IMG/VR virus record: IMGVR_UViG_3300006754_000007
Source of the DNA: an uncultured virus (IMG/VR IMGVR_UViG_3300006754_000007)
Taxonomy: Duplodnaviria; Heunggongvirae; Uroviricota; Caudoviricetes
Direction: 5' to 3' (one strand)
Length of the DNA: 64,000 bases
How positions within the stretch are numbered: the first letter of the stretch is position 1; the number at the start of each line of letters is the position of its first letter. The position numbers were made by a program, and so were the translations under genes. Shown piece after piece: positions 3,213 through 21,779 of the stretch. Under the pieces are notes generated by a model. It made no database searches. It was given only the letters and a program-made list of their open reading frames with translations, and was not told the origin of the DNA.

Positions 3213-3288
3213 TGGGGTGTAGGGTCAACTGGCAACCCACCGGGTTGTTACCCCGGAGATACTGGTTCGAGTCCAGTCGCCCCAGCCA
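3213..3288 (+). tRNA. tRNA-Asn(GTT)
   Basis: Full cloverleaf: acceptor TGGGGTG/CGCCCCA, D stem GGGT/ACCC, anticodon stem CCGGG/CCCGG with loop TT-GTT-AC, T arm ACTGG-TTCGAGT-CCAGT, G73, encoded CCA; 76 nt. Confidence 0.95.
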
Positions 3289-3298
3289 CATTTCCCCG

Positions 3299-3356
3299 GC
3301 TCCCGCTTACTACCATTCCTCTTCTGGACCCTGCCCGGTAGTAGGCGGGAGCTTTT
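3299..3356 (+). terminator. Stem-loop after the tRNA
   Basis: GCTCCCGCTTACTACC...GGTAGTAGGCGGGAGC followed by TTTT. Confidence 0.55.
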
Positions 3357-3562
3357 CACCACTTAGTGATGGGGCAGTGGCTATCCTTGGCGAGGTCCTC
3401 GACCAGACAGTCGCACTTCTCACACCACAGTTGTGAACGGCTCCCACGCTTCTTGACCTTTGAGAGGTGCGGGCATTTCCCACAGATCGTCAGACGTGCT
3501 TCCGCAAGGCCGTCTGGGAGTGCTGGTCTTCCCCATGCTCTACTTCGGCAGCAACTCATCAA
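3356..3562 (-). CDS. Small Cys-rich (Zn-binding) protein
   Basis: RLTICGKCPH...CEKCDC...HCPITKW. Confidence 0.6.
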   Translation of the reverse strand: MMSCCRSRAWGRPALPDGLAEARLTICGKCPHLSKVKKRGSRSQLWCEKCDCLVEDLAKDSHCPITKW

Positions 3563-3728
3563 GATTCCTTAGGTCGGGCTTGTCTGTCTTGAAGATGCCG
3601 CGCTGAGTCCTCTTCTTGTGGTTCTGTCGGAAGTGGAACGTGGCATCCTCAGGTACAGCTATACCTTTGGCTGCCAGGGCTGATCTCAAAAGGGCTTCCA
3701 TTTCTCGCTGTTCGAGGACCAGTTCCAT
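3540..3728 (-). CDS. Hypothetical protein
   Basis: MELVLEQREMEALLR; abuts neighbouring genes. Confidence 0.5.
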   Translation of the reverse strand: MELVLEQREMEALLRSALAAKGIAVPEDATFHFRQNHKKRTQRGIFKTDKPDLRNLDELLPK

Positions 3729-3729
3729 C

Positions 3730-3927
3730 CTATCGCCAGCGGGGATCGCAAAGGATCGCAAACACCAGGACGCCAACGATGACCCCACCCATGACGAGCA
3801 GGCTGCGTAGGATTGCGTCAATCATGGGGCGTGCTTCCAGCCCCTCAACCGAGAAGCCGTTTAGAGCGAACCGGACAAGGAAGAAGGCAGACGTAAACCA
3901 AACGATGAATCCAAGCATCTTTTTCAA
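3730..3927 (-). CDS. Small two-TM membrane protein
   Basis: Two hydrophobic helices; AGGAG RBS and class I motif upstream. Confidence 0.6.
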   Translation of the reverse strand: MKKMLGFIVWFTSAFFLVRFALNGFSVEGLEARPMIDAILRSLLVMGGVIVGVLVFAILCDPRWR

Positions 3928-3941
3928 CTCCTTGCCTCCTT

Positions 3942-3967
3942 TACGGTTCTGCATGAGACAGGGAACC
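3942..3967 (-). promoter_or_regulatory. Class I motif GGTTCC-N16-CGTA
   Basis: Exact match upstream of 3927. Confidence 0.7.
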
Positions 3968-4279
3968 CTACAGCAACTTGTGGGCTATGCGGCGGCTGAC
4001 GAAGAATCTCGTGAACCACCCCACAAGGGGGACATGGTCCAAGAAGTTGAGCCAGGGGTTTTCCAGGATGTGGAAGCAGGTCACGGTGAACAGGGTGATT
4101 TCCCACGGCGAGTAAGGAGACACCAACACCTTCGTGATCTGTGTATCTGGATCTTCTTCTTCCAGGCCAACGCACACGAACTCGCGGGGGTCGAGGGAGC
4201 CGTCAAGCTCGTACTCCACCCCGGTCAGCTTTCGCGCATTGATAAGCAAGGATGTGACTTGGTAGGGCATCAGGTCCAT
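3968..4279 (-). CDS. Hypothetical protein
   Basis: RBS; class I variant GGTTCT-N16-CGTA at 4289-4314. Confidence 0.6.
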   Translation of the reverse strand: MDLMPYQVTSLLINARKLTGVEYELDGSLDPREFVCVGLEEEDPDTQITKVLVSPYSPWEITLFTVTCFHILENPWLNFLDHVPLVGWFTRFFVSRRIAHKLL

Positions 4280-4399
4280 ACTCCCTTATACGCAAAGCCG
4301 GGGTATCGAGAACCCCCCTGGTTTTCTCGGTGGGTAGCCTTTAGCCGCTGGGTATTGTTTACAAATCCCGTGTGGATGAGCCTGAAAGGGAGATTTTCG

Positions 4400-4849
4400 A
4401 TGCGTTTGGTATGGCCTCTTTTTATGGTCCTTTTGATGGGTTGCCCCAAGGCGACGACGCTTAGGAGCGTCGAGGTCTACAAGGCTGAACTCCAACAGTA
4501 CAACCAATGGGCAACTGTTCAGGCAGGGCTGCTCCGGGACTTCGTCTCCAACCAGTGCGAGTGCAACGACATTGCGGAGTTCACAGACCCGCAGTGTACG
4601 AAGTCTGCTGATTGGCTGCTGACTGTGGAGTACCGTGCTGAGTGGCACCAGCAGATGTCCCTCTACAACGGGAGCTTGCTTGATGAGCGCCCAAGTGGAA
4701 CACCTCCTGCCATCCCTGATTCAAGCTGTCCGCTGCCTCCCCCTCCTGATGAAGCACCAGAACCGGACGAAACACCGCCCGAAGAGATTGCACCAGAGGT
4801 GGCTCCCGCCGAAATCGAAGCTGCTCCTGAAGCAGAGGTCACACCATGA
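4400..4849 (+). CDS. Predicted lipoprotein with Pro/Glu-rich tail
   Basis: MRLVWPLFMVLLMG-C lipobox-like signal. Confidence 0.65.
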   Translation: MRLVWPLFMVLLMGCPKATTLRSVEVYKAELQQYNQWATVQAGLLRDFVSNQCECNDIAEFTDPQCTKSADWLLTVEYRAEWHQQMSLYNGSLLDERPSGTPPAIPDSSCPLPPPPDEAPEPDETPPEEIAPEVAPAEIEAAPEAEVTP

Positions 4850-5229
4850 ACTGGCAAGACGCACTTTCCTCTCTCGTTCCCATTGCAGGCCAGATGGCTA
4901 TCGACAAGCTGGCAGGTGAACTTGACGGCCTGTCCGACAAGGCTGGGGACGCCACCAACAAGATTGTTCTCTCGCTCATCGCTGATGCAGTGGAGGAACA
5001 CGGGCCTGCCGGGATGGCATTGGCCCAGGACGCTATCGAAGACCTCTTGGAAGGGAAGGCCCCGGATATTGACTGGGCTAATCCCCGCACGGCCTCCGAT
5101 GCGGTGGCTCTTCTCCAGAATGCTGAAGCAGATCGAAAGAACGCTGCACGCGAGATGGCCGAGCGTGCCGGACACGTCCTGGCCCAACTCGGATCAGTGG
5201 TGGTCAAGGCGTTGATCGCCGCTGCCTGA
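4846..5229 (+). CDS. Helical hypothetical protein
   Basis: ATGA overlap with the upstream gene. Confidence 0.7.
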   Translation: MNWQDALSSLVPIAGQMAIDKLAGELDGLSDKAGDATNKIVLSLIADAVEEHGPAGMALAQDAIEDLLEGKAPDIDWANPRTASDAVALLQNAEADRKNAAREMAERAGHVLAQLGSVVVKALIAAA

Positions 5230-5239
5230 TTCGGGAGAG

Positions 5240-5265
5240 GGTTCCCGACACCTACCTGCATCGTA
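5240..5265 (+). promoter_or_regulatory. Class I motif GGTTCC-N16-CGTA
   Basis: Exact match upstream of 5288. Confidence 0.7.
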
Positions 5266-5287
5266 TAGTGAGGCAGGAGGTGTTGAC

Positions 5288-5494
5288 ATGAAAACGCTGA
5301 AGCTGAAGAAGAGCCTCAAGGTAGACCTCGCACTCACCACAGGCGTGGCGCTGCTGGCTGCGATGTTGTGGTACGTCTACTGGGTACAACCTCGTGATGA
5401 GTTCCTGCACGCGGTCATGGACTGCATGGAGGACGACACGGACGAGGCTGCGTACCAAGAGTGTGCGCGGCTCGTCGCAAACTCAACCCGGTGA
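5288..5494 (+). CDS. Small single-TM protein
   Basis: AGGAGG RBS; hydrophobic helix. Confidence 0.65.
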   Translation: MKTLKLKKSLKVDLALTTGVALLAAMLWYVYWVQPRDEFLHAVMDCMEDDTDEAAYQECARLVANSTR

Positions 5495-6127
5495 GTAGAC
5501 ACCCGTCTGACGGGCCACTCCCAGAAGCTCCTGCTCGAACATCTTGAACTTCGGCCCATGGTTCATGTGCCGGATGTGAGCAAGCTCGTGGATCATGGTC
5601 CGCATGATCGCGCTGTACTTGCGGAGCTTCATGGGGTTTCGCTTTTGCCGGACATTGAGGGCGATGATGCGGCCTGCTCCACGGTTGAAGCCCAGTGACC
5701 CCTCAGCTACAGACTCCTTGATGGTCTGGAAACGGAGGCCAAACTCCCGAAGCAATGGTTTTACGTCGCGTTGGATCTTCGCCATCATGGCTGCGACCTG
5801 TTCCTTGCCTTCCAGGTCGTACACGGAGTAGCCGTCCACCTTCGTGCGAGTCCATTCCTTCTTCTGCTGGACTCGTTCCTTCTTCTGACCCAGCTTGCGG
5901 TTGGCCCAACGGACCCATTTCGTAAGCTGCGTAGCCTTGTTGAACATCCGGCTGTCCTGCCCCCACTTCACCAGGAGGCGGTTCCCCCGAATCGAGGCAT
6001 TTGAACGGCGGTTGTCTGTCTCCACCTGAGTGACCTTGAGGCCATCAATGATGGAGTCCTCATAGGGACCGATGGCCTTGGCCTTCAGGCTGTGGCGTAG
6101 GGCAACTCTGGCGGGGTCATGCTTCAC
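5483..6127 (-). CDS. Tagged WLM/Wss1-like zinc metallopeptidase
   Basis: N-terminal DPARVALRHSLKAKA; LGFN..IALNVR..TMIHELAHIRHMNHGPKF. Confidence 0.75.
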   Translation of the reverse strand: MKHDPARVALRHSLKAKAIGPYEDSIIDGLKVTQVETDNRRSNASIRGNRLLVKWGQDSRMFNKATQLTKWVRWANRKLGQKKERVQQKKEWTRTKVDGYSVYDLEGKEQVAAMMAKIQRDVKPLLREFGLRFQTIKESVAEGSLGFNRGAGRIIALNVRQKRNPMKLRKYSAIMRTMIHELAHIRHMNHGPKFKMFEQELLGVARQTGVYSPG

Positions 6128-8925: not shown

Positions 8926-9135
8926 ATGTCCTGGCGTAAAGGTAGACACACCGGAGCTAAGTTCTGCGTTGCACGTCATCGTCGTATGACCCCGCGAGAA
9001 GCAGATTCACTCGAACGCACCATCGAGCGCCGCACCCGCCGCGAGGGTCAAGAGGCTTGTCGTGAGGGCGCAGAAGACGCTCTTCGGGGGTTGGTTTATC
9101 TTCCCGCCGACAGCGACGGAGCGCATCAGTCGTAG
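8926..9135 (+). CDS. Small basic protein
   Basis: AAGGAGG RBS; Arg-rich; overlaps the tyrS start. Confidence 0.55.
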   Translation: MSWRKGRHTGAKFCVARHRRMTPREADSLERTIERRTRREGQEACREGAEDALRGLVYLPADSDGAHQS

Positions 9136-10186
9136 CTCACACCCCTTGCGAGTGAAGTTCGGCATCGACCCCACAAGGGATCGGCTGCACCTGGGCCATT
9201 TCGTCCCTCTCCGTGTTGCCCGCAAGATGCAGGAGCAAGGCCACGACCTGCACCTCATCCTTGGCACCATCACGGCTGCACTCGGTGACCCGTCCGGTCA
9301 GGACAAGACCCGTCCCATTCTCTCGGAAGAGGAAGTTCGGTCGAACGCCGACTCTCTGCTGAAGCAGGTGGAGCGAGTGCTGCTTCCCGGATTCCAGGTT
9401 CACCGGAACCACGAGTTTGTAGAGGCCCTGAGCGTTCCGTTCTTCCTGACACGGCTCGCCAGCAAGGTGACCGTAACGAACATGCTGTCCCGTGATGGCT
9501 TCCGTCGCCGTAACGAAGCGGGCCAAGCCATCGCGCTCCACGAGTTGCTGGTGCCCCTGCTTCAAGGCTGGGATTCAGTTCAGGTCCAGGCTGAGGTGGA
9601 GATTGGCGGTACGGACCAGTTGTTCAACTTCCAGGTAGCCCGTCAGCTTCAAGAGTCCGAGGGTCAGGCTCCTCAGGATTGCGTGATGACCCCTGTGATT
9701 CGGGGCACTGACGGACGCAAAATGAGCAAGAGCTTCGACAACGCCATCTGGCTGGACGAGGCTCCCGAGCAGATGTTCGGCAAGATCATGTCCATCTCTG
9801 ATGAAGTGTCCGAGGAATGGGCCGGACTGCTGACCTCCATCACGGAGTTCCCGGCCCACCCCATGGAGCACAAAAAGATGCTGGCGTGGGACATTGTGCG
9901 CCAGCTTCGCGGTGCTGCCGCAGCCGACAAGGCCCAGGCCCACTTTGAAGCCTCCGTACAGCGCCAGGAGCGGCCCTCAGACATGCCGCAGGTAGCCCAG
10001 GCCCCTCTGGTATCGCTGGTCGCAGAAGTACGGGGAGAAAGCCGCTCAAAGGCTCGTAAGCTCATTCAGGGCGGTGGTGTCAGGATTGATGGCGAGAAGC
10101 ATCTTGATGTTGAGGGTGTCCCGGCCCTTGGCTCTGTAGTACGGGTCGGTAAGCGCGTCTTTGTGAGGGTGGGAGAACCCTCGTGA
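9062..10186 (+). CDS. tyrS: Tyrosyl-tRNA synthetase
   Basis: VKFGIDPT, HLGH, GDPSG, GGTDQLFN, KMSKS, C-terminal S4-like ARKLIQGGGVRIDG; start uncertain. Confidence 0.93.
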   Translation: MRAQKTLFGGWFIFPPTATERISRSSHPLRVKFGIDPTRDRLHLGHFVPLRVARKMQEQGHDLHLILGTITAALGDPSGQDKTRPILSEEEVRSNADSLLKQVERVLLPGFQVHRNHEFVEALSVPFFLTRLASKVTVTNMLSRDGFRRRNEAGQAIALHELLVPLLQGWDSVQVQAEVEIGGTDQLFNFQVARQLQESEGQAPQDCVMTPVIRGTDGRKMSKSFDNAIWLDEAPEQMFGKIMSISDEVSEEWAGLLTSITEFPAHPMEHKKMLAWDIVRQLRGAAAADKAQAHFEASVQRQERPSDMPQVAQAPLVSLVAEVRGESRSKARKLIQGGGVRIDGEKHLDVEGVPALGSVVRVGKRVFVRVGEPS

Positions 10187-14065: not shown

Positions 14066-14647
14066 ATGGCTGGAAGTCTGGAAGTGGTGGTGGGGTGCAT
14101 GTACTCCGGGAAGACCGAGGAGTTGGTCCGGCGTCTGACACGAGCGCAGATTGCGGGGCTGCGAGTAGGAGCCTTCAAGCCGAAGATGGACAACCGATAC
14201 TCGGAGGACAACCTGTGTACACATCTCGGGGCGACTTTTCCGGCCACACCCGTAACCAACATCAACGAGGTCAAGCTGGCAGCGAGGCGCTTTGATGTCA
14301 TCGGCATTGATGAGGTTCAGTTTATCGAGGGGGCCAGTCTGTGCGAGATTCTCGATGAACTGGCGAGCGAGGGGCAACGGGTCATCGTAGCGGGGCTTGA
14401 TTTGGACTACCAAGGTGTGCCTTTTGCGGAGGTGCCCGACCTCATGGCCCTCGCTGATTCAGTGACCAAGGTGACGGCGGTGTGCTGCATGTGTGGAAAT
14501 CCCGCTACCAGGACACAGCGTCTTGTGGAATCAGACCAGCGAGTCCTGGTGGGGTCCAAAGGAATGTACGAGGCCCGATGCCGAGAAGACTGGTCTTCCA
14601 CCCCCGGCTTCGCCAAAGAGGGTCTGGAACAAGTCTCGGAGGGGTAG
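14066..14647 (+). CDS. tdk: Thymidine kinase
   Basis: GCMYSGKTEEL, IGIDEVQF, VAGLDLD, CCMCG, YEARCR. Confidence 0.95.
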   Translation: MAGSLEVVVGCMYSGKTEELVRRLTRAQIAGLRVGAFKPKMDNRYSEDNLCTHLGATFPATPVTNINEVKLAARRFDVIGIDEVQFIEGASLCEILDELASEGQRVIVAGLDLDYQGVPFAEVPDLMALADSVTKVTAVCCMCGNPATRTQRLVESDQRVLVGSKGMYEARCREDWSSTPGFAKEGLEQVSEG

Positions 14648-14655
14648 ACTCTCCC

Positions 14656-15306
14656 ATGAGACTTATCCACCTGCTTCGGAAACCTGTATCTGAAGGCACA
14701 GTAGCCTCCAATGTGCTCAAGCATGGCGTAGGCGCGATCAACATCGAAGCCTCCAGGATTTCCACTCAGGACAGTCTCGATGGCGGTGCCTACGCCAAGA
14801 ACCCCACGCCTCGCGCTGACAGCTACGACATGTGGACCTCTGAGCGTAAGGGCGACTCCCAGGCGATGCGCCGAGGCTTCGCTGACTACGAGCAACCTGC
14901 GGGGCGATGGCCCGCCAACCTCATCCTCCAGCACCTCGATGGATGTCGGCGTGAGGGCACGAAGAAGGTTCGCAGCCCGATGAGAAGGCCAACGGGCAAG
15001 CCTATCTATGCCACCGAAGGGTCGGCTGTTGAATGGAACGCCAACAACGTGCGGGACACGACAGTACGGGGCCATGCCGGTGAAGACGGGAACGAAACTG
15101 TAGCTAACTGGGTCTGCAAGGCGGGGTGTCCCGTAAGGGTGCTGGACGAAGACGCGGGCATACGACCTTCCTGGGGGATCACTCATCAGCCCACGAGGAG
15201 TGGGTATGACTACCGCTCTGCTGAGGACGGTGGAACCCATGCTTACAGGGAACCTGACACTGGTGGTGCTTCTCGGTACTTCAAGCAGATTGGAGGGGAA
15301 GAGTGA
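14656..15306 (+). CDS. DNA N4/N6-methyltransferase, central segment only
   Basis: RKPVSEGTVASNVLKHGVGAINIEASRI, GRWPANLIL, CPVRVLDE, GGASRYF; lacks DPPY and FxGxG. Confidence 0.75.
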   Translation: MRLIHLLRKPVSEGTVASNVLKHGVGAINIEASRISTQDSLDGGAYAKNPTPRADSYDMWTSERKGDSQAMRRGFADYEQPAGRWPANLILQHLDGCRREGTKKVRSPMRRPTGKPIYATEGSAVEWNANNVRDTTVRGHAGEDGNETVANWVCKAGCPVRVLDEDAGIRPSWGITHQPTRSGYDYRSAEDGGTHAYREPDTGGASRYFKQIGGEE

Positions 15307-16088
15307 AGTCGCTACCTGCTGAAGCAGTCGCTTATCTACGCGCAATGATCTCTCCAGAGCACCTGGACGAGTGTGTCTCGCTGTACGTTTGTGACCCTGG
15401 TGATTTCCACTGGGCTGCCCATGCCGATGCTTCGGTTCACGCCTTGATCATCGAGGGTGACGGGAACGAAGAAGCATGGATGGCCGAGGCGTACCGCGTC
15501 CTCAAGCCAGGAGCGCACCTCCTGTTGGCCTCGCCTGAAGCAGAGCCAACCGGCCACACCGCAGCGTGCCAAGGGGAAGACATTGGCTTCGAGGTGAGGG
15601 ACTGCATCCTTCTCGCAGAAGCAGGGACTCCCTTGCACTACGTCCCGAAGCCATCCCGAGCAGAACGAGAGGCTGGATGTGGAACCTTGAGCGCGATTCA
15701 ACAGGACGCGAGCCGACACGCGGGCCAACCCTCCATGAATGACGGGGACGGCAATCCCTACAACCGGGGCGTTCAGAAGCGCCACAACTCCCATCCAACA
15801 GTGAAGCCGGTGGAGATCATGCGGAGGCTGCTCCTTGGGTTGCCCATGGGCGCTCCCGTCGTGGACCCGTTTTTGGGATCTGGTACGACCATGATTGCCT
15901 GCACTAAGACCGGGCATGACGGTATCGGAATCGAGCGGGAAGAAGCCTACCTGGAGATTGCAGAGAACCGCGTCAGCTACTGGAACGCAGAGAACCAGGG
16001 CTGGAACCGGGCAGTCGTTGAATCAGACCTCACAAAGGAACCGGACGCGGCCACCCAATCTCTTGAAGACTTCTTTGGGCTGGGGTGA
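15303..16088 (+). CDS. DNA N4/N6-methyltransferase, SAM-binding C-terminal segment with degenerate N-domain
   Basis: YVPKPSRAERE, HPTVKP, VVDPFLGSGTT, IGIERE; AYRVLKPG present but no DPPY. Confidence 0.8.
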   Translation: MKSLPAEAVAYLRAMISPEHLDECVSLYVCDPGDFHWAAHADASVHALIIEGDGNEEAWMAEAYRVLKPGAHLLLASPEAEPTGHTAACQGEDIGFEVRDCILLAEAGTPLHYVPKPSRAEREAGCGTLSAIQQDASRHAGQPSMNDGDGNPYNRGVQKRHNSHPTVKPVEIMRRLLLGLPMGAPVVDPFLGSGTTMIACTKTGHDGIGIEREEAYLEIAENRVSYWNAENQGWNRAVVESDLTKEPDAATQSLEDFFGLG

Positions 16089-16091
16089 GCA

Positions 16092-16835
16092 ATGGCTGAG
16101 CTAACACTGATTCGACACACCTTCACTTGCCGAACTTGCGGGTTCCAATGGCAAAGCAAGAGCCATCGAGCGTGCCGGGAATGCGGAGCACTCTGGGGGG
16201 ACACCCCTGCTCCAGCGGCTCCCGGCCCCTACATCGCCCTTAGGGACTCGCCCGGACGTGGGTTGGGGGTATACGCCACGGAGGACATCCCTTGTGCCAC
16301 CGTTATTGAACGGTGTCCGGCCTTTGTGTCCGTGACCAACATCAACGCCGGACCAAGCACCGAGGAGTTTCTGTCTGTCTTTACAGAGCCGTTTGCGCCT
16401 GGGGGGGACGGGGTGCCCACCGGGGAGTTCGTAGCATTTAGGCATTTAGTGGTGCCCTGGAGGCGGGATAACTTCAAGGCCGTCCTCTTAGGCTTTGGGA
16501 TGCTTTACAACCATTCAAGGGAAAACTGGAACACCGTTGCGTTGCCTTACGTCGATCCAAACACTCAGCGTCGGTACATGGACTTCGTTACTTGGCACCC
16601 GGTCCCCAAAGGGGAAGAGTTCTTAGTCAACTATGGGGAACAGTTGTGGTTCATCCCCAACAAGGAAGAGAAAAAGGAAAGGGAGCCGATGACTCCTGAA
16701 GAAGGAGTGGCGTTGCAGAAGGTTTTCGGGGAGCACGAGAAAGCCTGCATTGATGCAGGAGAGCTTGGCAACAAGGACCCAAACTTCTCAAAGCAAATGC
16801 TGGGGTGGGCAGCGGATGCGGAGAAGTCACCGTGA
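16092..16835 (+). CDS. SET-domain lysine methyltransferase with N-terminal Zn ribbon
   Basis: CRTC..CREC; SPGRGLGVYATEDI, GMLYNHS, KGEEFLVNYG. Confidence 0.85.
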   Translation: MAELTLIRHTFTCRTCGFQWQSKSHRACRECGALWGDTPAPAAPGPYIALRDSPGRGLGVYATEDIPCATVIERCPAFVSVTNINAGPSTEEFLSVFTEPFAPGGDGVPTGEFVAFRHLVVPWRRDNFKAVLLGFGMLYNHSRENWNTVALPYVDPNTQRRYMDFVTWHPVPKGEEFLVNYGEQLWFIPNKEEKKEREPMTPEEGVALQKVFGEHEKACIDAGELGNKDPNFSKQMLGWAADAEKSP

Positions 16836-17718
16836 GTCAAACCATCACTTTGAAGCACGGGGACTGCGTTGAAGTCCTTGGTGCGATGGAGGAATCGAGC
16901 GTAGGGAGTGTCATCTGTGACCCTCCCTACGGTTGAATGGCCTGGAGTTCATGGGAAAAGAGTGGGACAAGATCGGCAGCGGAAAGTCTTACGAGCACGG
17001 CGGCACCTTCACCAAGCCTGGAATCGGGGAACGCGAAATCGCGTGGCCCAGTTTCTCCAGCACCTCCAAGCACGGGACCACCAACCCGACTTGTGCAGAG
17101 TGCGGAGGACGCTTGCGTGGTGCAAAGAAGTGCGATTGCCCTAAGCCGCATGACCATTGGAAGCCGATGGGCAAACGGCGCAAGAGGCCCGAGGAGGACA
17201 CTCCCGAGCACATCACAGGCGGGGGAATGGGGGGCCATTTGGAGGCCATGCAGGCATGGCACGTTCGATGGCTGGAGGAGAGCTACCGCGTGCTTCAGCC
17301 CGGTGGCGTCGTCAAAGCCTTCTCCGGGACGCGGACCTTTCATCGCCTCGCGGCGGCTATGGAGACAGCAGGCTTCACTGACATCAGGCTTGAAGTCTGG
17401 ACTTACGGAAGCGGCTTTCCAAAGAGCTTGAACATCGGTCGTGCCATCGACAAAGCCGCGAGGGGATTCCCACAAGGTGGCTCAGACCCAGACAAGCGTG
17501 GGACCGGAGACCTTCCTGACCGTCTTGCTTTAGGGATGGGCGGGAAAGACGGCAGTGCTGTTACCGGGTTGACCTCTAAGTACGAGGAATACACCCTGAC
17601 GACCCCTGAAGCAGAGCAGTGGGAGGGATGGGGCACGGCACTCAAGCCGTCATGGGAACCTGTTTTGGTTGGCACGAAGCCCCCTGTGGATAACTCTGGG
17701 GATAATGGGGGGTCTTGA
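16832..17718 (+). CDS. DNA N4/N6-methyltransferase, catalytic N-terminal segment, interrupted after DPPYG (bypass candidate or pseudogene)
   Basis: GTG 16832: MSQTITLKHGDCVEVL..VICDPPYG, TGA 16934; resumes 8 nt on as GLEFMGKEWD..RVLQPGG..WTYGSGFPKS..WEGWGTALKPSWEP. Confidence 0.8.
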
Positions 17719-17745: not shown

Positions 17746-18294
17746 ATGGAGGCACAGATGAACGTCTTTGCGACCGATACTGACCCGATGGTGGCAGCTA
17801 CCCACCTGTCAGACCAACATGTCCGCTCTCAACTGGGCGAAACAGCACGCATTCTTTCCACGGCCCTGCACATGCAAGGACTTGGGGGCGGCCCGTTGCT
17901 GGAACAGCCCTACAAGCAAGAAGGTTGTGTGCCCCAGGACGGCTGCTGCAAGTTCCCGGCATGGGCTGCATCTTCTTGGGACAACTTCTTCTGGCTCGTG
18001 TTCTACGGCATGGCCCTGGTGGAAGAACACGAGTTCCGGTTCAGGGAGATCCATCCTGCGACCGCGTCGATTCTTGCCTGCGGAGGGATGGCTCGACTGA
18101 TCGTCCTTCAACGGCATCAAGAGATCCACGAGCCTTCGGTGTGGCCTCGCTGCGAAGCAGCGATGGGGTTCGAGGACCTGGATACACACAAGGCGTACCG
18201 AAATGTGCTTCGAGCGCAGTACGACGCCGGGGCAAAGAATGGTTCGCGTCCTACCTGGACTCGCTGTGACCCGCCATTCTGGCTGGCTGCCTGA
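17746..18294 (+). CDS. Pyrimidine-dimer DNA glycosylase/endonuclease V-like family protein
   Basis: MNVF..DP..AA..L.D.HV..Q..E..ILST..NFFWL..YG.AL.EE..FRF..H..WT..PFWL. Confidence 0.7.
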   Translation: MEAQMNVFATDTDPMVAATHLSDQHVRSQLGETARILSTALHMQGLGGGPLLEQPYKQEGCVPQDGCCKFPAWAASSWDNFFWLVFYGMALVEEHEFRFREIHPATASILACGGMARLIVLQRHQEIHEPSVWPRCEAAMGFEDLDTHKAYRNVLRAQYDAGAKNGSRPTWTRCDPPFWLAA

Positions 18295-19754: not shown

Positions 19755-21779
19755 ATGAAGGCGGCATCTGCAAGGAGGGTGGCTCTGCGCCACACCAAGA
19801 CTGCGTGCGTGGTAGCGATTGCAGACATTGAGGGAGAAACCATTCTTCTCAAGGTGCGGGACCGCAACTATGTCCCTCGCATCAAGGTGGTGCGAGAGTT
19901 GGCCGCTGGCACCGAGATTGCCCATGTTTACGACACCTGGACTGGTTGGTCTGAGGGCATCAATGAACACGGCATCAGTTTGGTCAGTTCCGCGCTTTTG
20001 GTCGAGGTAGACGAGGGGGAGAAGAAAACGACTGATGGGAATAGCGGGACGGGCCAGAAGATCCGAGAGATTCTCGGTGCCAAGACCATGGACGCAGCCA
20101 TCGAAATCATCATGGGAAACGTGGTGAAGGGATGCACCATCATCTCCGATGGCAACTCTTCGGTTCTTGTTGAGTTCGACGGCAACAAGGACAAGGGAGG
20201 GGCAGACCCCATCCTGAAGCACCTCAAGAAGAAAGTGGTGCTGAGTCGAACCAACCACGGGGTTTTCCTTGAAGGTTCTGGCTACACAAAAGACTACAAG
20301 GGCGGTGACGACCTCAAGTCCTCGAAGGAGCGTAAAGAGACCTCCGAGAAGGTGTTGGAAGAGGTGGAAGAGGTATCTGACGTTGCTGCCGCAATGGCCC
20401 GCGCCAGAAAGAAGGACCGCGAGCACCCCAACAATGCAATCCGGGCGACGGACAACATGTTCACCTCGACCCAGATTCTCATGCGCCCTGAAGCCAAGAC
20501 GATGGCGGTTTACCTGATTCCACGGGAAGTGGATTTCCTGGGAGTGGAGAACAGGCTCCCCAAGAAGAGGAAGCCTCAAATCAACATCGAGGTTTTTGAC
20601 TTCGAGGACTGGGATTCCGAGGACCCTGTTCCGGTCGCCTTAGAGGGAGACCTCGAAGTATTCAGGCTGTTCACCTACGGGTCAATGATGGGGAAGCCTT
20701 CCCACCCAAAGGATGTGGTTCGTTCTTACAAGGCAACCTTGAAGGGCCATCACAGAGCCTACAACCGCGCCAGCCAATCGCGTGGGGACACCCTTGTGAT
20801 GGGCACCGAGAAGGGTGGCGACATCGAGGGTGTGGTCCACGAATACCCTGTGGAGATAGCTCACAGGATGTTGGGGCAGGTGGATCGGCGGGAAGGATTC
20901 CGTACCGAGCGGGACCGCAGCTTGAACGCCTACACACGAGGCCACTTCGCGGTCGAGGTGAAGGGGGAAGACCCCGTGTGGGCGGTTGCATACCTGAGCA
21001 ACTCGAAGGGACCCAGCTACCTGAAGCCGCTCACCGTTGACCAAGCAGTGAAGCGCATCGAGAGCGAAGGCTCGCCGTCCCAAAAGTATCTCCGTCACAT
21101 CGAGGAAGCCCTCAAAGAGTACAAGTGCAAGGACTCTTACGTTTCCGACATCGCCAAGAAGGTGGGGAAGGCCCAGGCCAAGAAGGTGGCTCGACGGTAC
21201 GCCACAAGGGAGTTGGAGCTTCACCTGTACGACTTCGACGGCACCCTGTTCAAGTCGCCCCTCAAGCCCGACTGGTGGGGAAAGAAGTCCTGGTGGATTG
21301 AGCCAGAGTCACTGGGGCCACCGTGCGTGCCCTTGAAGCCAGGGTCAAGTTGGTGGATCGGTAAAACGGTTGCGGATGCCAAGAGGAGTATCTCTGACTC
21401 AAGCGTGTGGGCGATCCTATGTACGGGTCGCGCTGACACAGGCTCTCTCCGGTATCGGGTTGCAGAACTGCTGAAGCAGCAAGGTTTGAGTTTCGATGAG
21501 GTCTACTTGTCTAAGGGGGGCCAGGACGCGCCCTCCATGTACAAGGTCAATGTGATGTCGAAGATACTGGACAGGTTTCCCAACATCGCCACCGTTCAGA
21601 TTTGGGAGGACACCAACCTCTCGAAGTACGTCCGTTACATCGAGTCCACAGGACGGACTTGCATCCCCCATCCCGTCAAGGTGCCGCCCCATGAAGTGGA
21701 ATGCACCAAGGAAGACATGGAAAGAATGGTCGAAGAGGGTTGGTCGAGATGGCAGAAGGTGGGGGCTGAAAAACCTTGA
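19755..21779 (+). CDS. Tagged three-domain protein: Ntn hydrolase (C45/CBAH-like), gamma-glutamylcyclotransferase (ChaC-like), HAD phosphatase (RNA-repair Swiss-army-knife-like)
   Basis: RRVALRHTKTA-CVVAI..KVRDR..EGINEHG..RTNHG; LFTYGSMM..DRREG; KKVARRY..LYDFDGTLFKSP..LCTGR..IWED. Confidence 0.8.
   Translation: MKAASARRVALRHTKTACVVAIADIEGETILLKVRDRNYVPRIKVVRELAAGTEIAHVYDTWTGWSEGINEHGISLVSSALLVEVDEGEKKTTDGNSGTGQKIREILGAKTMDAAIEIIMGNVVKGCTIISDGNSSVLVEFDGNKDKGGADPILKHLKKKVVLSRTNHGVFLEGSGYTKDYKGGDDLKSSKERKETSEKVLEEVEEVSDVAAAMARARKKDREHPNNAIRATDNMFTSTQILMRPEAKTMAVYLIPREVDFLGVENRLPKKRKPQINIEVFDFEDWDSEDPVPVALEGDLEVFRLFTYGSMMGKPSHPKDVVRSYKATLKGHHRAYNRASQSRGDTLVMGTEKGGDIEGVVHEYPVEIAHRMLGQVDRREGFRTERDRSLNAYTRGHFAVEVKGEDPVWAVAYLSNSKGPSYLKPLTVDQAVKRIESEGSPSQKYLRHIEEALKEYKCKDSYVSDIAKKVGKAQAKKVARRYATRELELHLYDFDGTLFKSPLKPDWWGKKSWWIEPESLGPPCVPLKPGSSWWIGKTVADAKRSISDSSVWAILCTGRADTGSLRYRVAELLKQQGLSFDEVYLSKGGQDAPSMYKVNVMSKILDRFPNIATVQIWEDTNLSKYVRYIESTGRTCIPHPVKVPPHEVECTKEDMERMVEEGWSRWQKVGAEKP

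Follow-up and report, generated by a model that had tools for sequence, protein, structure and literature searches.

The gene for the catalytic half of a DNA methylase in the uncultured virus IMGVR_UViG_3300006754_000007 (Caudoviricetes) is interrupted, directly after its DPPYG codons, by a stop codon and a short gap that shifts the frame. The gene lies at positions 16832 to 17718 of the 64,000-nucleotide (nt) stretch of this viral DNA that was analyzed, which is hereafter called the window. Comparison of its sequence with those of its homologs suggests, with a probability that we put at about 0.68, that this marine phage gene uses programmed translational bypass, namely, a Gly-to-Gly stop-hop over 8 nt, and the window case apparently belongs to an unpublished class of short programmed stop-hops. 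The strongest cis-element at the site is an RNA hairpin that ends on the putative take-off codon, which was missed in an initial annotation of this DNA, made from the sequence alone, in which the hop had been proposed.

The interrupted junction and its homologs

The coordinates of the relevant features are reported in Table 1. The first open reading frame (ORF1) is coupled to the preceding SET-domain gene through a GTGA overlap, as the initial annotation had described, since its GTG (16832 to 16834) overlaps the TGA (16833 to 16835) of that ORF (16092 to 16835). In frame 0, ORF1 ends with TGT GAC CCT CCC TAC GGT TGA, followed by AT, and the GGC after these two nucleotides leads into CTG GAG TTC ATG GGA AAA GAG TGG GAC, in a frame that remains open up to the TGA at 17716 to 17718; the order GGT (16931), TGA (16934), AT, GGC (16939), CTG GAG TTC ATG reads exactly as had been claimed. 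The distance between DPPY and the Met of FMGK is 32 nt in the window and 24 nt in uninterrupted homologs, and removal of the 8 nt does restore the family spacing, DPPYG-LEFMGKEWD, that is found at 128 uninterrupted homologous junctions. The two flanking codons, GGT 16931 and GGC 16939, are synonymous Gly codons, both readable through wobble by a single tRNA-Gly(GCC), in agreement with the earlier suggestion that one tRNA could serve for take-off and landing. Since the downstream (target) frame contains a TGA at 16918 to 16920, the frame change must fall within positions 16921 to 16936. This interval, which reads CCCTCCCTACGGTTGA, contains no slippery heptamer of the type X_XXY_YYZ on which -1 frameshifting would rely, and the +1 frame at the junction is not the methylase frame.

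Table 1. Positions of the junction elements, of the hairpin, and of the neighboring genes in the window
Feature	Position	Strand	Description
ORF1	16832..16936	+	GTG start; 34 codons to ...VICDPPYG and a TGA; covers motif IV (DPPY) and the N-terminal strand of the catalytic half
Motif IV DPPY	16919-16930	+	N-terminus of the methylase, as in beta-class N6/N4 DNA methyltransferases (PF01555)
Putative take-off codon GGT (Gly)	16931..16933	+	Proposed to be in the P site as the stop enters the A site
TGA stop	16934..16936	+	Directly 3' of the take-off codon
Gap interior AT	16937..16938	+	Read from the sequence
Putative landing codon GGC	16939..16941	+	First GG after take-off; directly 5' of the resume codon
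ORF2	16942..17718	+	Resume codon CTG; LEFMGKEWD ... ALKPSWEPVLVGTKP...; TGA stop at 17716-17718; remainder of the catalytic half
RNA hairpin, 13 bp	16900..16931	+	Minimum free energy (MFE), -21.1 kcal/mol
Hairpin 5' arm	16900-16913		Codons S-V-G-S-V
Hairpin loop	16914-16917		TCTG
Hairpin 3' arm	16918-16931		Codons D-P-P-Y and first G of the take-off codon
Thymidine kinase gene	14066-14647	+	
Recognition-like module	14656-15306	+	
Cofactor-binding half	15303-16088	+	PF01555; DPFLGSGTT and degenerate DPGDFHW
SET-domain gene	16092-16835	+	PF00856, 28.1 bits; GTGA coupling to ORF1

The stretch is present in 20 runs from 14 studies, and the Logan contigs of four of these runs (X7, X9, X10, and X11, from four studies) span positions 16924 to 16950 with no indel, so that the 8 nt are retained in independent data and the assembly error initially listed as an alternative is excluded; this support comes from contigs, which cannot reveal rare variants. 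In particular, X10 and X11 are ~98% variants that show, over 800 nt, 14 and 17 differences, and their sole indel is an in-frame 3-nt deletion at 17191. In the methylase of these variants, 10 of the 17 single-nucleotide polymorphisms are synonymous when each half is read in its proposed frame. ORF1 has a single replacement, I to V (16913 A>G), through which a hairpin pair changes from A-U to G.U.

Homologs were collected by searches in viral and metagenome collections, by three pattern scans of viral contigs, by one genome scan, and by a second homolog search. The 160 distinct DPPY..FMG junctions obtained comprise 128 uninterrupted ones, with a fixed 24-nt spacing and no stop, most of which read DPPYGLEFMGKEWD (DPPYGYGFMGK in an AT-rich subfamily), 22 interrupted ones, and 10 with other inserts that contain no stop and are either in frame, G rich, and coding or derived from other families caught by the pattern. 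Since the three pattern scans were built to find inserts, these proportions are not frequencies; in the unbiased homolog sets, 1 interrupted gene was found in 77 viral loci and 7 on 6 of 80 metagenome loci. The sole match of the genome scan, in a Nitrospira metagenome-assembled genome (L167), is a 9-nt in-frame insert with no stop and is probably unrelated. Excluded from the counts was L173, a gene of a different methylase family (DPPYGTTACSWD; DPPY at 1501) whose contig has 27% GC; its Gly codon is followed by an in-frame TGA, but a GGN codon for landing is missing, and the TGA may reflect a reassigned genetic code rather than a hop.

The stop-plus-gap for which the initial annotation had suggested searching in related genomes thus recurs in 22 distinct genes, among which is the nearest relative of the window gene (L001). 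The two proteins share 74% amino acid identity in a global alignment and 81% in the best tblastn segment, with saturated synonymous divergence (dS), and the L001 junction, TAC GGC TGA AT GGC CTT GAG TTC, has an identical gap and synonymous changes in both flanking frames. The break occurs at this position in a further 20 distinct genes, other gap lengths included. One 2.1-kb contig (L078) carries two paralogous catalytic-half genes, at 494 and 1991, both of which are interrupted, one by an 8-nt gap and the other by a 5-nt gap (GGT TA GGT).

The stop directly after the Gly codon of DPPYG, which the initial annotation had singled out at TGA 16934 and which would stand in the A site at take-off, is shared by all 22 interrupted genes (TGA in 16, TAG in 5, and TAA in 1), and no frame-breaking insert was found without it. 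With respect to the consensus, the gaps measure 5, 6, 8, 10, 12, 13, 14, 15, and 24 nt, so that every residue modulo 3 is represented; the 8-nt gap occurs in 11 genes, including that of the window, and the 15-nt gap of L196 holds two in-frame stops (TAG and TAA). In 19 of the 22 genes, the resume codon is immediately preceded by a GGN codon, a feature that was not among the requirements of the scans. In 13 genes, the take-off and landing codons are GGY/GGY or GGG/GGG; 6 pair GGY with GGA or the reverse, and 3 have AGC at the landing position. Furthermore, the gap interiors (0 to 18 nt) contain a single G in total, in the L168 type, in genomes with ~25 to 30% G, whereas in-frame coding inserts found at this site are rich in G. 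From the landing site to the conserved Met, the codons specify LEF or the subfamily's own YGF, YSF, LAF, or IEF. Within a type they differ only synonymously, which indicates that they are translated, even though no start codon precedes them. With one exception (L163, discussed below), the downstream ORFs are intact, with 182 to 482 amino acids (aa) to the stop or an open frame to the end of the locus.

Both halves of the gene are also under purifying selection. Between the window and L001, which keep the same 8-nt gap, the proportions of synonymous differences (pS) are 0.75 and 0.62 in the N and C parts, those of nonsynonymous differences (pN) are 0.27 and 0.18, and the ratios of nonsynonymous divergence (dN) to dS are 0.09 and 0.16. 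Most of the remaining pairs have a dS beyond saturation; pN is nonetheless lower than pS in 19 of 20 pair-by-part comparisons, and for ORF1 it is far lower than pS in the comparisons with L001, L079, and L160. The conservation of two intact, constrained ORFs and of the gap over such divergence argues against a gene silenced in a common ancestor. Thus, the statement that both halves are otherwise intact, the second frame being open to 17718, holds, and the recent inactivating insertion that had been left as an alternative is excluded by this selection at saturated dS and by the persistence of the gap in the ~98% variants.

A FastTree phylogeny was built from 119 distinct catalytic-half sequences (181 columns), from which rows were dropped if they had fewer than 100 aa or lacked the KPxxEP end motif (L079, L159, L161, L162, L163, and L078b). 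The 9 interrupted rows are all contained in a single clade of 23 rows (support, 99), with no interruption among the other 96 rows. The minimum number of state changes on the tree is 5, and at least 2 are required by well-supported branches. L208, L168, L180, and L172, which are interrupted and AT rich and were found later, sit in other subfamilies, in which the uninterrupted relatives read DPPYGYGFMGK.

The upstream hairpin and the proposed mechanism

The hairpin is formed within the coding sequence of ORF1, with positions 16909 and 16922 unpaired. All 10 GC-rich genes with short gaps (5, 6, and 8 nt) present a hairpin, with an MFE of -19.4 to -27.7; in the same comparison, five genes with long gaps have no hairpin and a median MFE of -9.3, and the median of 112 uninterrupted genes is -9.6, with 8 of them reaching -18. 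Overall, the hairpin occurs in 15 of the 22 interrupted genes versus 7 of the 128 uninterrupted ones (Fisher P = 1e-10, relatedness being ignored). The sole feature found in the 34-residue N-termini preceding the take-off codon that separates interrupted from uninterrupted genes is the set of residues imposed by the hairpin.

Base pairing at this site is also supported by covariation. In an alignment of 13 sequences, 95.3% of the cells pair, compared to 41 to 56% when the partner is slid, and both partners vary in three pairs (A-U/G-C/U-A, G-C/A-U, and A-U/G-C); the covariation score was reached by none of 500 shuffles, and RNAalifold recovers the same hairpin core. Moreover, changes at the third positions of the DPPY codons are matched by amino acid-changing substitutions in the 5' arm, as in L126, where CCA is accompanied by TGG (S to W). 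The 130 cells of the 10 interrupted genes include 118 Watson-Crick pairs, 10 G.U, and 1 A.C, and the ratio of G.U to A.C points to a sense-strand RNA rather than to a DNA palindrome.

In the AT-rich subfamily (31 to 35% GC), the interrupted lineage has a hairpin of -19.8, with the same architecture and a different sequence, which arose through replacements of N-S by H-T; the values of about 20 uninterrupted relatives range from -0.3 to -8.4. Since the 5' arms of the GC-rich and AT-rich subfamilies are unrelated and derive from amino acid-changing substitutions, the module was apparently assembled at least twice, and, if so, this repeated assembly would argue for selection for hopping itself, not for mere tolerance of an accident. 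It is possible to hypothesize, with odds that we consider even, that phage methylases harbor a natural, minimal, hairpin-powered bypass module, in which a Gly codon and a stop are separated from a second Gly codon by a G-free gap of any length between 5 and 24 nt, with a hairpin built from the DPPYG codons as a spring that pulls the mRNA forward, which was assembled at least twice and selected for hopping itself. If so, hopping might tie the methylase output to release-factor activity or break up a highly conserved DNA target.

As for the mechanism, ribosomes would start at GTG 16832 and read 34 codons, until GGT 16931 occupies the P site and TGA the A site. Part of them would terminate here and release a 34-residue peptide; in the remaining ones, the peptidyl-tRNA-Gly would leave GGT, the mRNA would slide by 8 nt, and the anticodon would re-pair at GGC 16939, the first GG that it meets. 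Decoding would then restart at CTG 16942 and yield a single chain, ...DPPYG-LEFMGKEWD.... At take-off, the 3' arm of the hairpin should be inside the ribosome and the 5' arm already outside, so that, from this geometry, the refolding of the arms could pull the mRNA out at the exit side and the ribosome forward; roughly the upper 8 to 9 bp could form after the 8-nt slide. We infer that this refolding is the driving force, while the G-free gap would block premature re-pairing. Genes that lack the hairpin would have to use something else. Candidate roles of the hop are the setting of a low methylase yield, the sensing of release-factor activity, or no role beyond that of a tolerated insert.

Further pairings around the junction were considered. 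An extended lower stem, in which the take-off codon, the stop, and the landing site pair with an upstream GAGG/CAGC, is present in some genes (L159, L001, L163, and L079), but no weight is given to it, as its register varies and it shows no covariation. For genes with long gaps, the observations are anecdotal: L080 has a CTGA/TCAG mini-hairpin, the gap of L162 pairs with an upstream GTGGTCA, and L161 and L162 have an ACC in the gap opposite GGT.

Evidence against bypassing and alternative explanations

Several observations weigh against programmed bypassing. Relatedness inflates the counts, and two of the scans had interrupted genes as their target. The hairpin is missing in 7 of the 22 interrupted genes, i.e., in L172 (10-nt gap) and in all six genes with gaps of 12, 14, 15, or 24 nt, and a similar hairpin is present in some uninterrupted relatives of the clade, in the same register in L087 (at 4195) and L085, in a weaker version in L100, and in a different register in L095 (at 6422); it follows that it is neither necessary nor sufficient. 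In 6 of the 22 genes, different tRNAs would be needed for take-off and landing (GGY versus GGA), and the lineage of L168, L170, and L204 has AGC ahead of the consensus resume site. The N part of the pair L001-L078a (32 codons) is the exception among the 20 comparisons, with a dN/dS of 1.16. The L163 gene keeps the gap, but its downstream ORF has 25 codons, and the loss of most of ORF2 suggests that some copies may be decaying. Finally, no RNA run with the stretch is among the 21 runs listed, and the efficiency of the hop could be very low.

Some of these loci have further peculiarities. In L168, L170, and L204 (DPPY at oriented position 1501), the gap measures 10 nt and the insert is flanked by a TATGG direct repeat; the first GGN is 6 nt further on, and landing on that GGA would give a product two residues shorter. 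In L163 (minus strand, DPPY at oriented position 1501), an internal deletion joins MGKKWD directly to GWGTALKPSWEP..., with the hairpin retained, so that the locus encodes either a mini-protein of ~60 residues or a remnant. In L087, positions 3329 to 5495 are occupied by three tandem uninterrupted catalytic-half paralogs of ~235 to 260 aa, the middle one of which has the strongest version of the hairpin (-30 kcal/mol) and no gap.

The main rival to bypassing is the production of two polypeptides, by termination at TGA 16934 and separate initiation at the conserved ATG 16951 (MGKEWD...), with non-covalent assembly of the second product and the 34-residue peptide. Methylases of this family are often split into separately encoded modules, the ATG lies 15 nt after the stop, at a distance that could allow termination-reinitiation, and in the window it is preceded at 3 nt by GGAG. 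However, this GGAG is not conserved (TGAG in L001 and CGAA in L078), and the known natural splits fall at module borders, not within the catalytic loop. Furthermore, the three codons ahead of the ATG and the GGN are kept at the amino acid level despite saturated dS, as would not be expected of a spacer, and both the G-free gaps and a hairpin that ends on the take-off codon would be left unexplained. We regard separate initiation as improbable, though less so than the explanations that follow.

A mixture of recoding events, in which the gap would be translated as an insert by -1 (or +2) frameshifting at gaps of 3n + 2 nt and by readthrough at gaps of 3n nt, appears very unlikely. It is true that the -1 frame of the window is open across the gap (TTG AAT GGC) and that gap lengths of 6, 12, and 24 nt preserve the frame, but positions 16921 to 16936 offer no slippery heptamer, tRNA-Gly cannot re-pair on CGG at -1, and gaps of 10 and 13 nt (3n + 1) exist. 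In addition, the gap of L180 has a TAA in the downstream frame, L196 has its two in-frame stops, three mechanisms would be required where one suffices, and the avoidance of G would have no explanation. Gaps of all residues modulo 3, together with the double stop of L196, fit a single mechanism that ignores the frame and do not fit frameshifting or readthrough alone.

We give a similarly small chance to an inactive or decaying gene, or to a gap-less minority genome that supplies the enzyme through phase variation. The L163 copy, which has lost most of ORF2, is in line with decay, and contigs are unable to show rare variants. On the other hand, purifying selection acts on both halves even though dS is saturated, all genes but one have kept intact ORFs, no simple-sequence repeat is present at the site, and no indel was seen in four assemblies, ~98% variants included; moreover, random lesions would not recur as Gly-stop...Gly at a single codon. 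Excision of the gap from the RNA before translation, by hairpin-guided processing or editing, has the slimmest chance of all: a conserved sense-strand RNA hairpin does adjoin the gap, but seven interrupted genes have none, the Gly-stop-Gly pattern would serve no purpose, and we know of no bacterial or phage system that cuts 5 to 24 nt from an mRNA and rejoins the ends.

The gap also failed to match other kinds of element. An overlapping zero-frame gene starting from the ATG after the TGA (TGAATGG) was rejected, since the open length of this frame ranges from 23 to 177 codons among nine genes and is thus not conserved. No homing endonuclease domain of Pfam or PHROG was found in the window ORFs scanned (PHROGs, 40; Pfam, 56 + 7), and the downstream ORFs of L159, L161, L162, L168, and L196 gave no Pfam match to a homing endonuclease or intein at an E value of ≤0.001.

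Genomic context and comparison with known bypassing systems

The assignment of the interrupted gene to the DNA methylases rests on several matches. ORF2 matches PF01555 at positions 26 to 89 only, with 21.4 bits, below the Pfam gathering cutoff of 26.7, but its homology is clear from tblastn matches to annotated phage DNA methylases (E value, 3e-34) and from a match to phrog_67. The sole match by sequence in the Protein Data Bank is CcrM (E value, 4.3e-05), and, since residues 17 to 48 of CcrM align with ORF1, the 34-residue product is part of the catalytic fold and not a separate domain. About 290 aa of catalytic half would result after the hop.

Motif I (FxGxG), which binds S-adenosylmethionine, is absent from 16832 to 17718 and occurs in the form DPFLGSGTT in the upstream gene 15303 to 16088 (PF01555 positions 159 to 220, 68.1 bits), which indicates that the methylase is a split enzyme. 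The upstream modules at 14656 to 16088 are presumably the partners of the catalytic half. The modules are encoded out of order, with the recognition-like and cofactor-binding ones upstream of the catalytic half, and the catalytic motif has a dead copy, DPGDFHW, in the cofactor-binding half. The two coupled upstream genes (14656 to 15306 and 15303 to 16088) are fused in L001 as a single ORF of 479 aa; the split at 15303 was considered as a second recoding site and rejected, as it is an ordinary GTGA-coupled split in a variable linker.

A SET-domain (protein lysine methyltransferase-like) gene is embedded in this DNA methylase operon, is coupled at both ends, and is kept in L001. Also kept in L001 is the ORF just downstream of the methylase (17746 to 18294, plus strand), which matches phrog_624 ("DNA binding protein") and whose N-terminus, we presume, resembles pyrimidine-dimer glycosylases. 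Elsewhere on the plus strand, the window encodes a bacterial-type tyrosyl-tRNA synthetase with an S4 domain (9062 to 10183), a tRNA-Asn (3213 to 3288), which is the single tRNA found in the window, with no tRNA-Gly, and a 674-aa ORF (19755 to 21779) in which a ChaC/GGACT-like domain is joined to a HAD domain of the RNA-repair type known as "Swiss Army Knife." The majority of the other window ORFs have no family; the matches include the tyrosyl-tRNA synthetase, DUF5131, and a WLM peptidase. No close DNA relative was found among known phage genomes, the sole match being 64 nt in the methylase of a Rhizobium phage.

Natural bypassing in use is known from very few cases, namely, T4 gene 60 and its homologs, the inserts of yeast mitochondria, and the candidate in phage phiHau3. 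The genes described here would add at least 22 diverged natural examples, with varied gaps, all three stops, several Gly codons, and a hairpin that is present or absent and covaries, so that the gene family represents a ready mutational series on peptidyl-tRNA release, slide distance, and landing choice. The element comprises ~50 nt and could easily be tested in reporters. As for annotation, gene callers will split or truncate such methylase genes and call them pseudogenes. A search for a published bypass or a gap of this kind in a methyltransferase, with subscription-only papers and closed supplements outside it, found none.

A tool paper lists methyltransferases among phage genes "known to contain a frameshift," with no detail (PMC10885494). 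The closest likeness is to T4 gene 60 and the homologous topoisomerase genes of myoviruses, in which, as here, a Gly take-off codon is followed by an immediate stop and a non-coding gap, with a Gly landing codon next to the resume codon (10.1101/2022.08.31.505936; PMC5009743). The matched-codon/stop architecture that had been compared to gene 60 (GGA-UAG...GGA) is indeed shared. In gene 60, pairing of the exiting mRNA has been proposed as the forward driver (10.1101/2024.12.09.627546), and the preprint by Manning and Atkins likewise holds that it drives forward bypassing (10.1101/2022.08.31.505936). The two systems differ in several respects. The gene 60 gap measures 50 nt, compared to 8 nt here (5 to 24 nt in the relatives); in gene 60, the take-off codon and the 5' portion of the gap form a take-off stem-loop, which has no counterpart here, where the 8-nt gap is too short for it; and the hairpin that we describe lies 5' of the gap and ends on the take-off codon. 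Moreover, gene 60 encodes a topoisomerase subunit, with no sequence similarity to the methylase, and no linkage to its mobile cassette (homing endonuclease) was found here in the ORFs scanned; nor was a nascent-peptide signal identified.

The byps of Magnusiomyces capitatus, which are 27 to 55 nt long, are mitochondrial, and their insert sequences differ from the gaps described here. In that organism, many short inserts are bypassed in translation (PMC5009743, PMC10732093). The large terminase gene of the Streptomyces phage phiHau3 contains two 10-nt coding gaps led by UUA, and the junction peptide was found in Escherichia coli (PMC10732093). As in our case, a short frame-breaking insert is present in a phage gene whose flanks match uninterrupted homologs; in phiHau3, however, the trigger is the rare UUA codon, read by the bldA tRNA of the host, and three genes are known, whereas here a stop codon, tRNA-Gly, and a methylase are concerned. 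Unlike in phiHau3, a conserved 5' hairpin is present here, together with many diverged genes of varied gap length.

With respect to the hairpin, an upstream hairpin that refolds beside the shift site stimulates +1 frameshifting (PMC6321510), and an RNA duplex just 5' of the shift site, as the mRNA exits, favors forward slippage (PMC3639245, PMC6321510). In these systems, whether based on an upstream hairpin or on an internal Shine-Dalgarno duplex, the shift is of +1 on overlapping codons, while here the hop would lead to a non-overlapping codon. Finally, synthetic "stop-hops" have been obtained in E. coli with engineered constructs (Weiss et al. 1987, as cited in PMC5009743), and the 2016 review by Atkins et al. 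states that no natural in-frame stop-hops were known, although shorter counterparts of gene 60 had long been presumed to exist (PMC5009743). Different from the constructs of Weiss et al., which were engineered, the candidate stop-hops of the phage methylases are natural and conserved.

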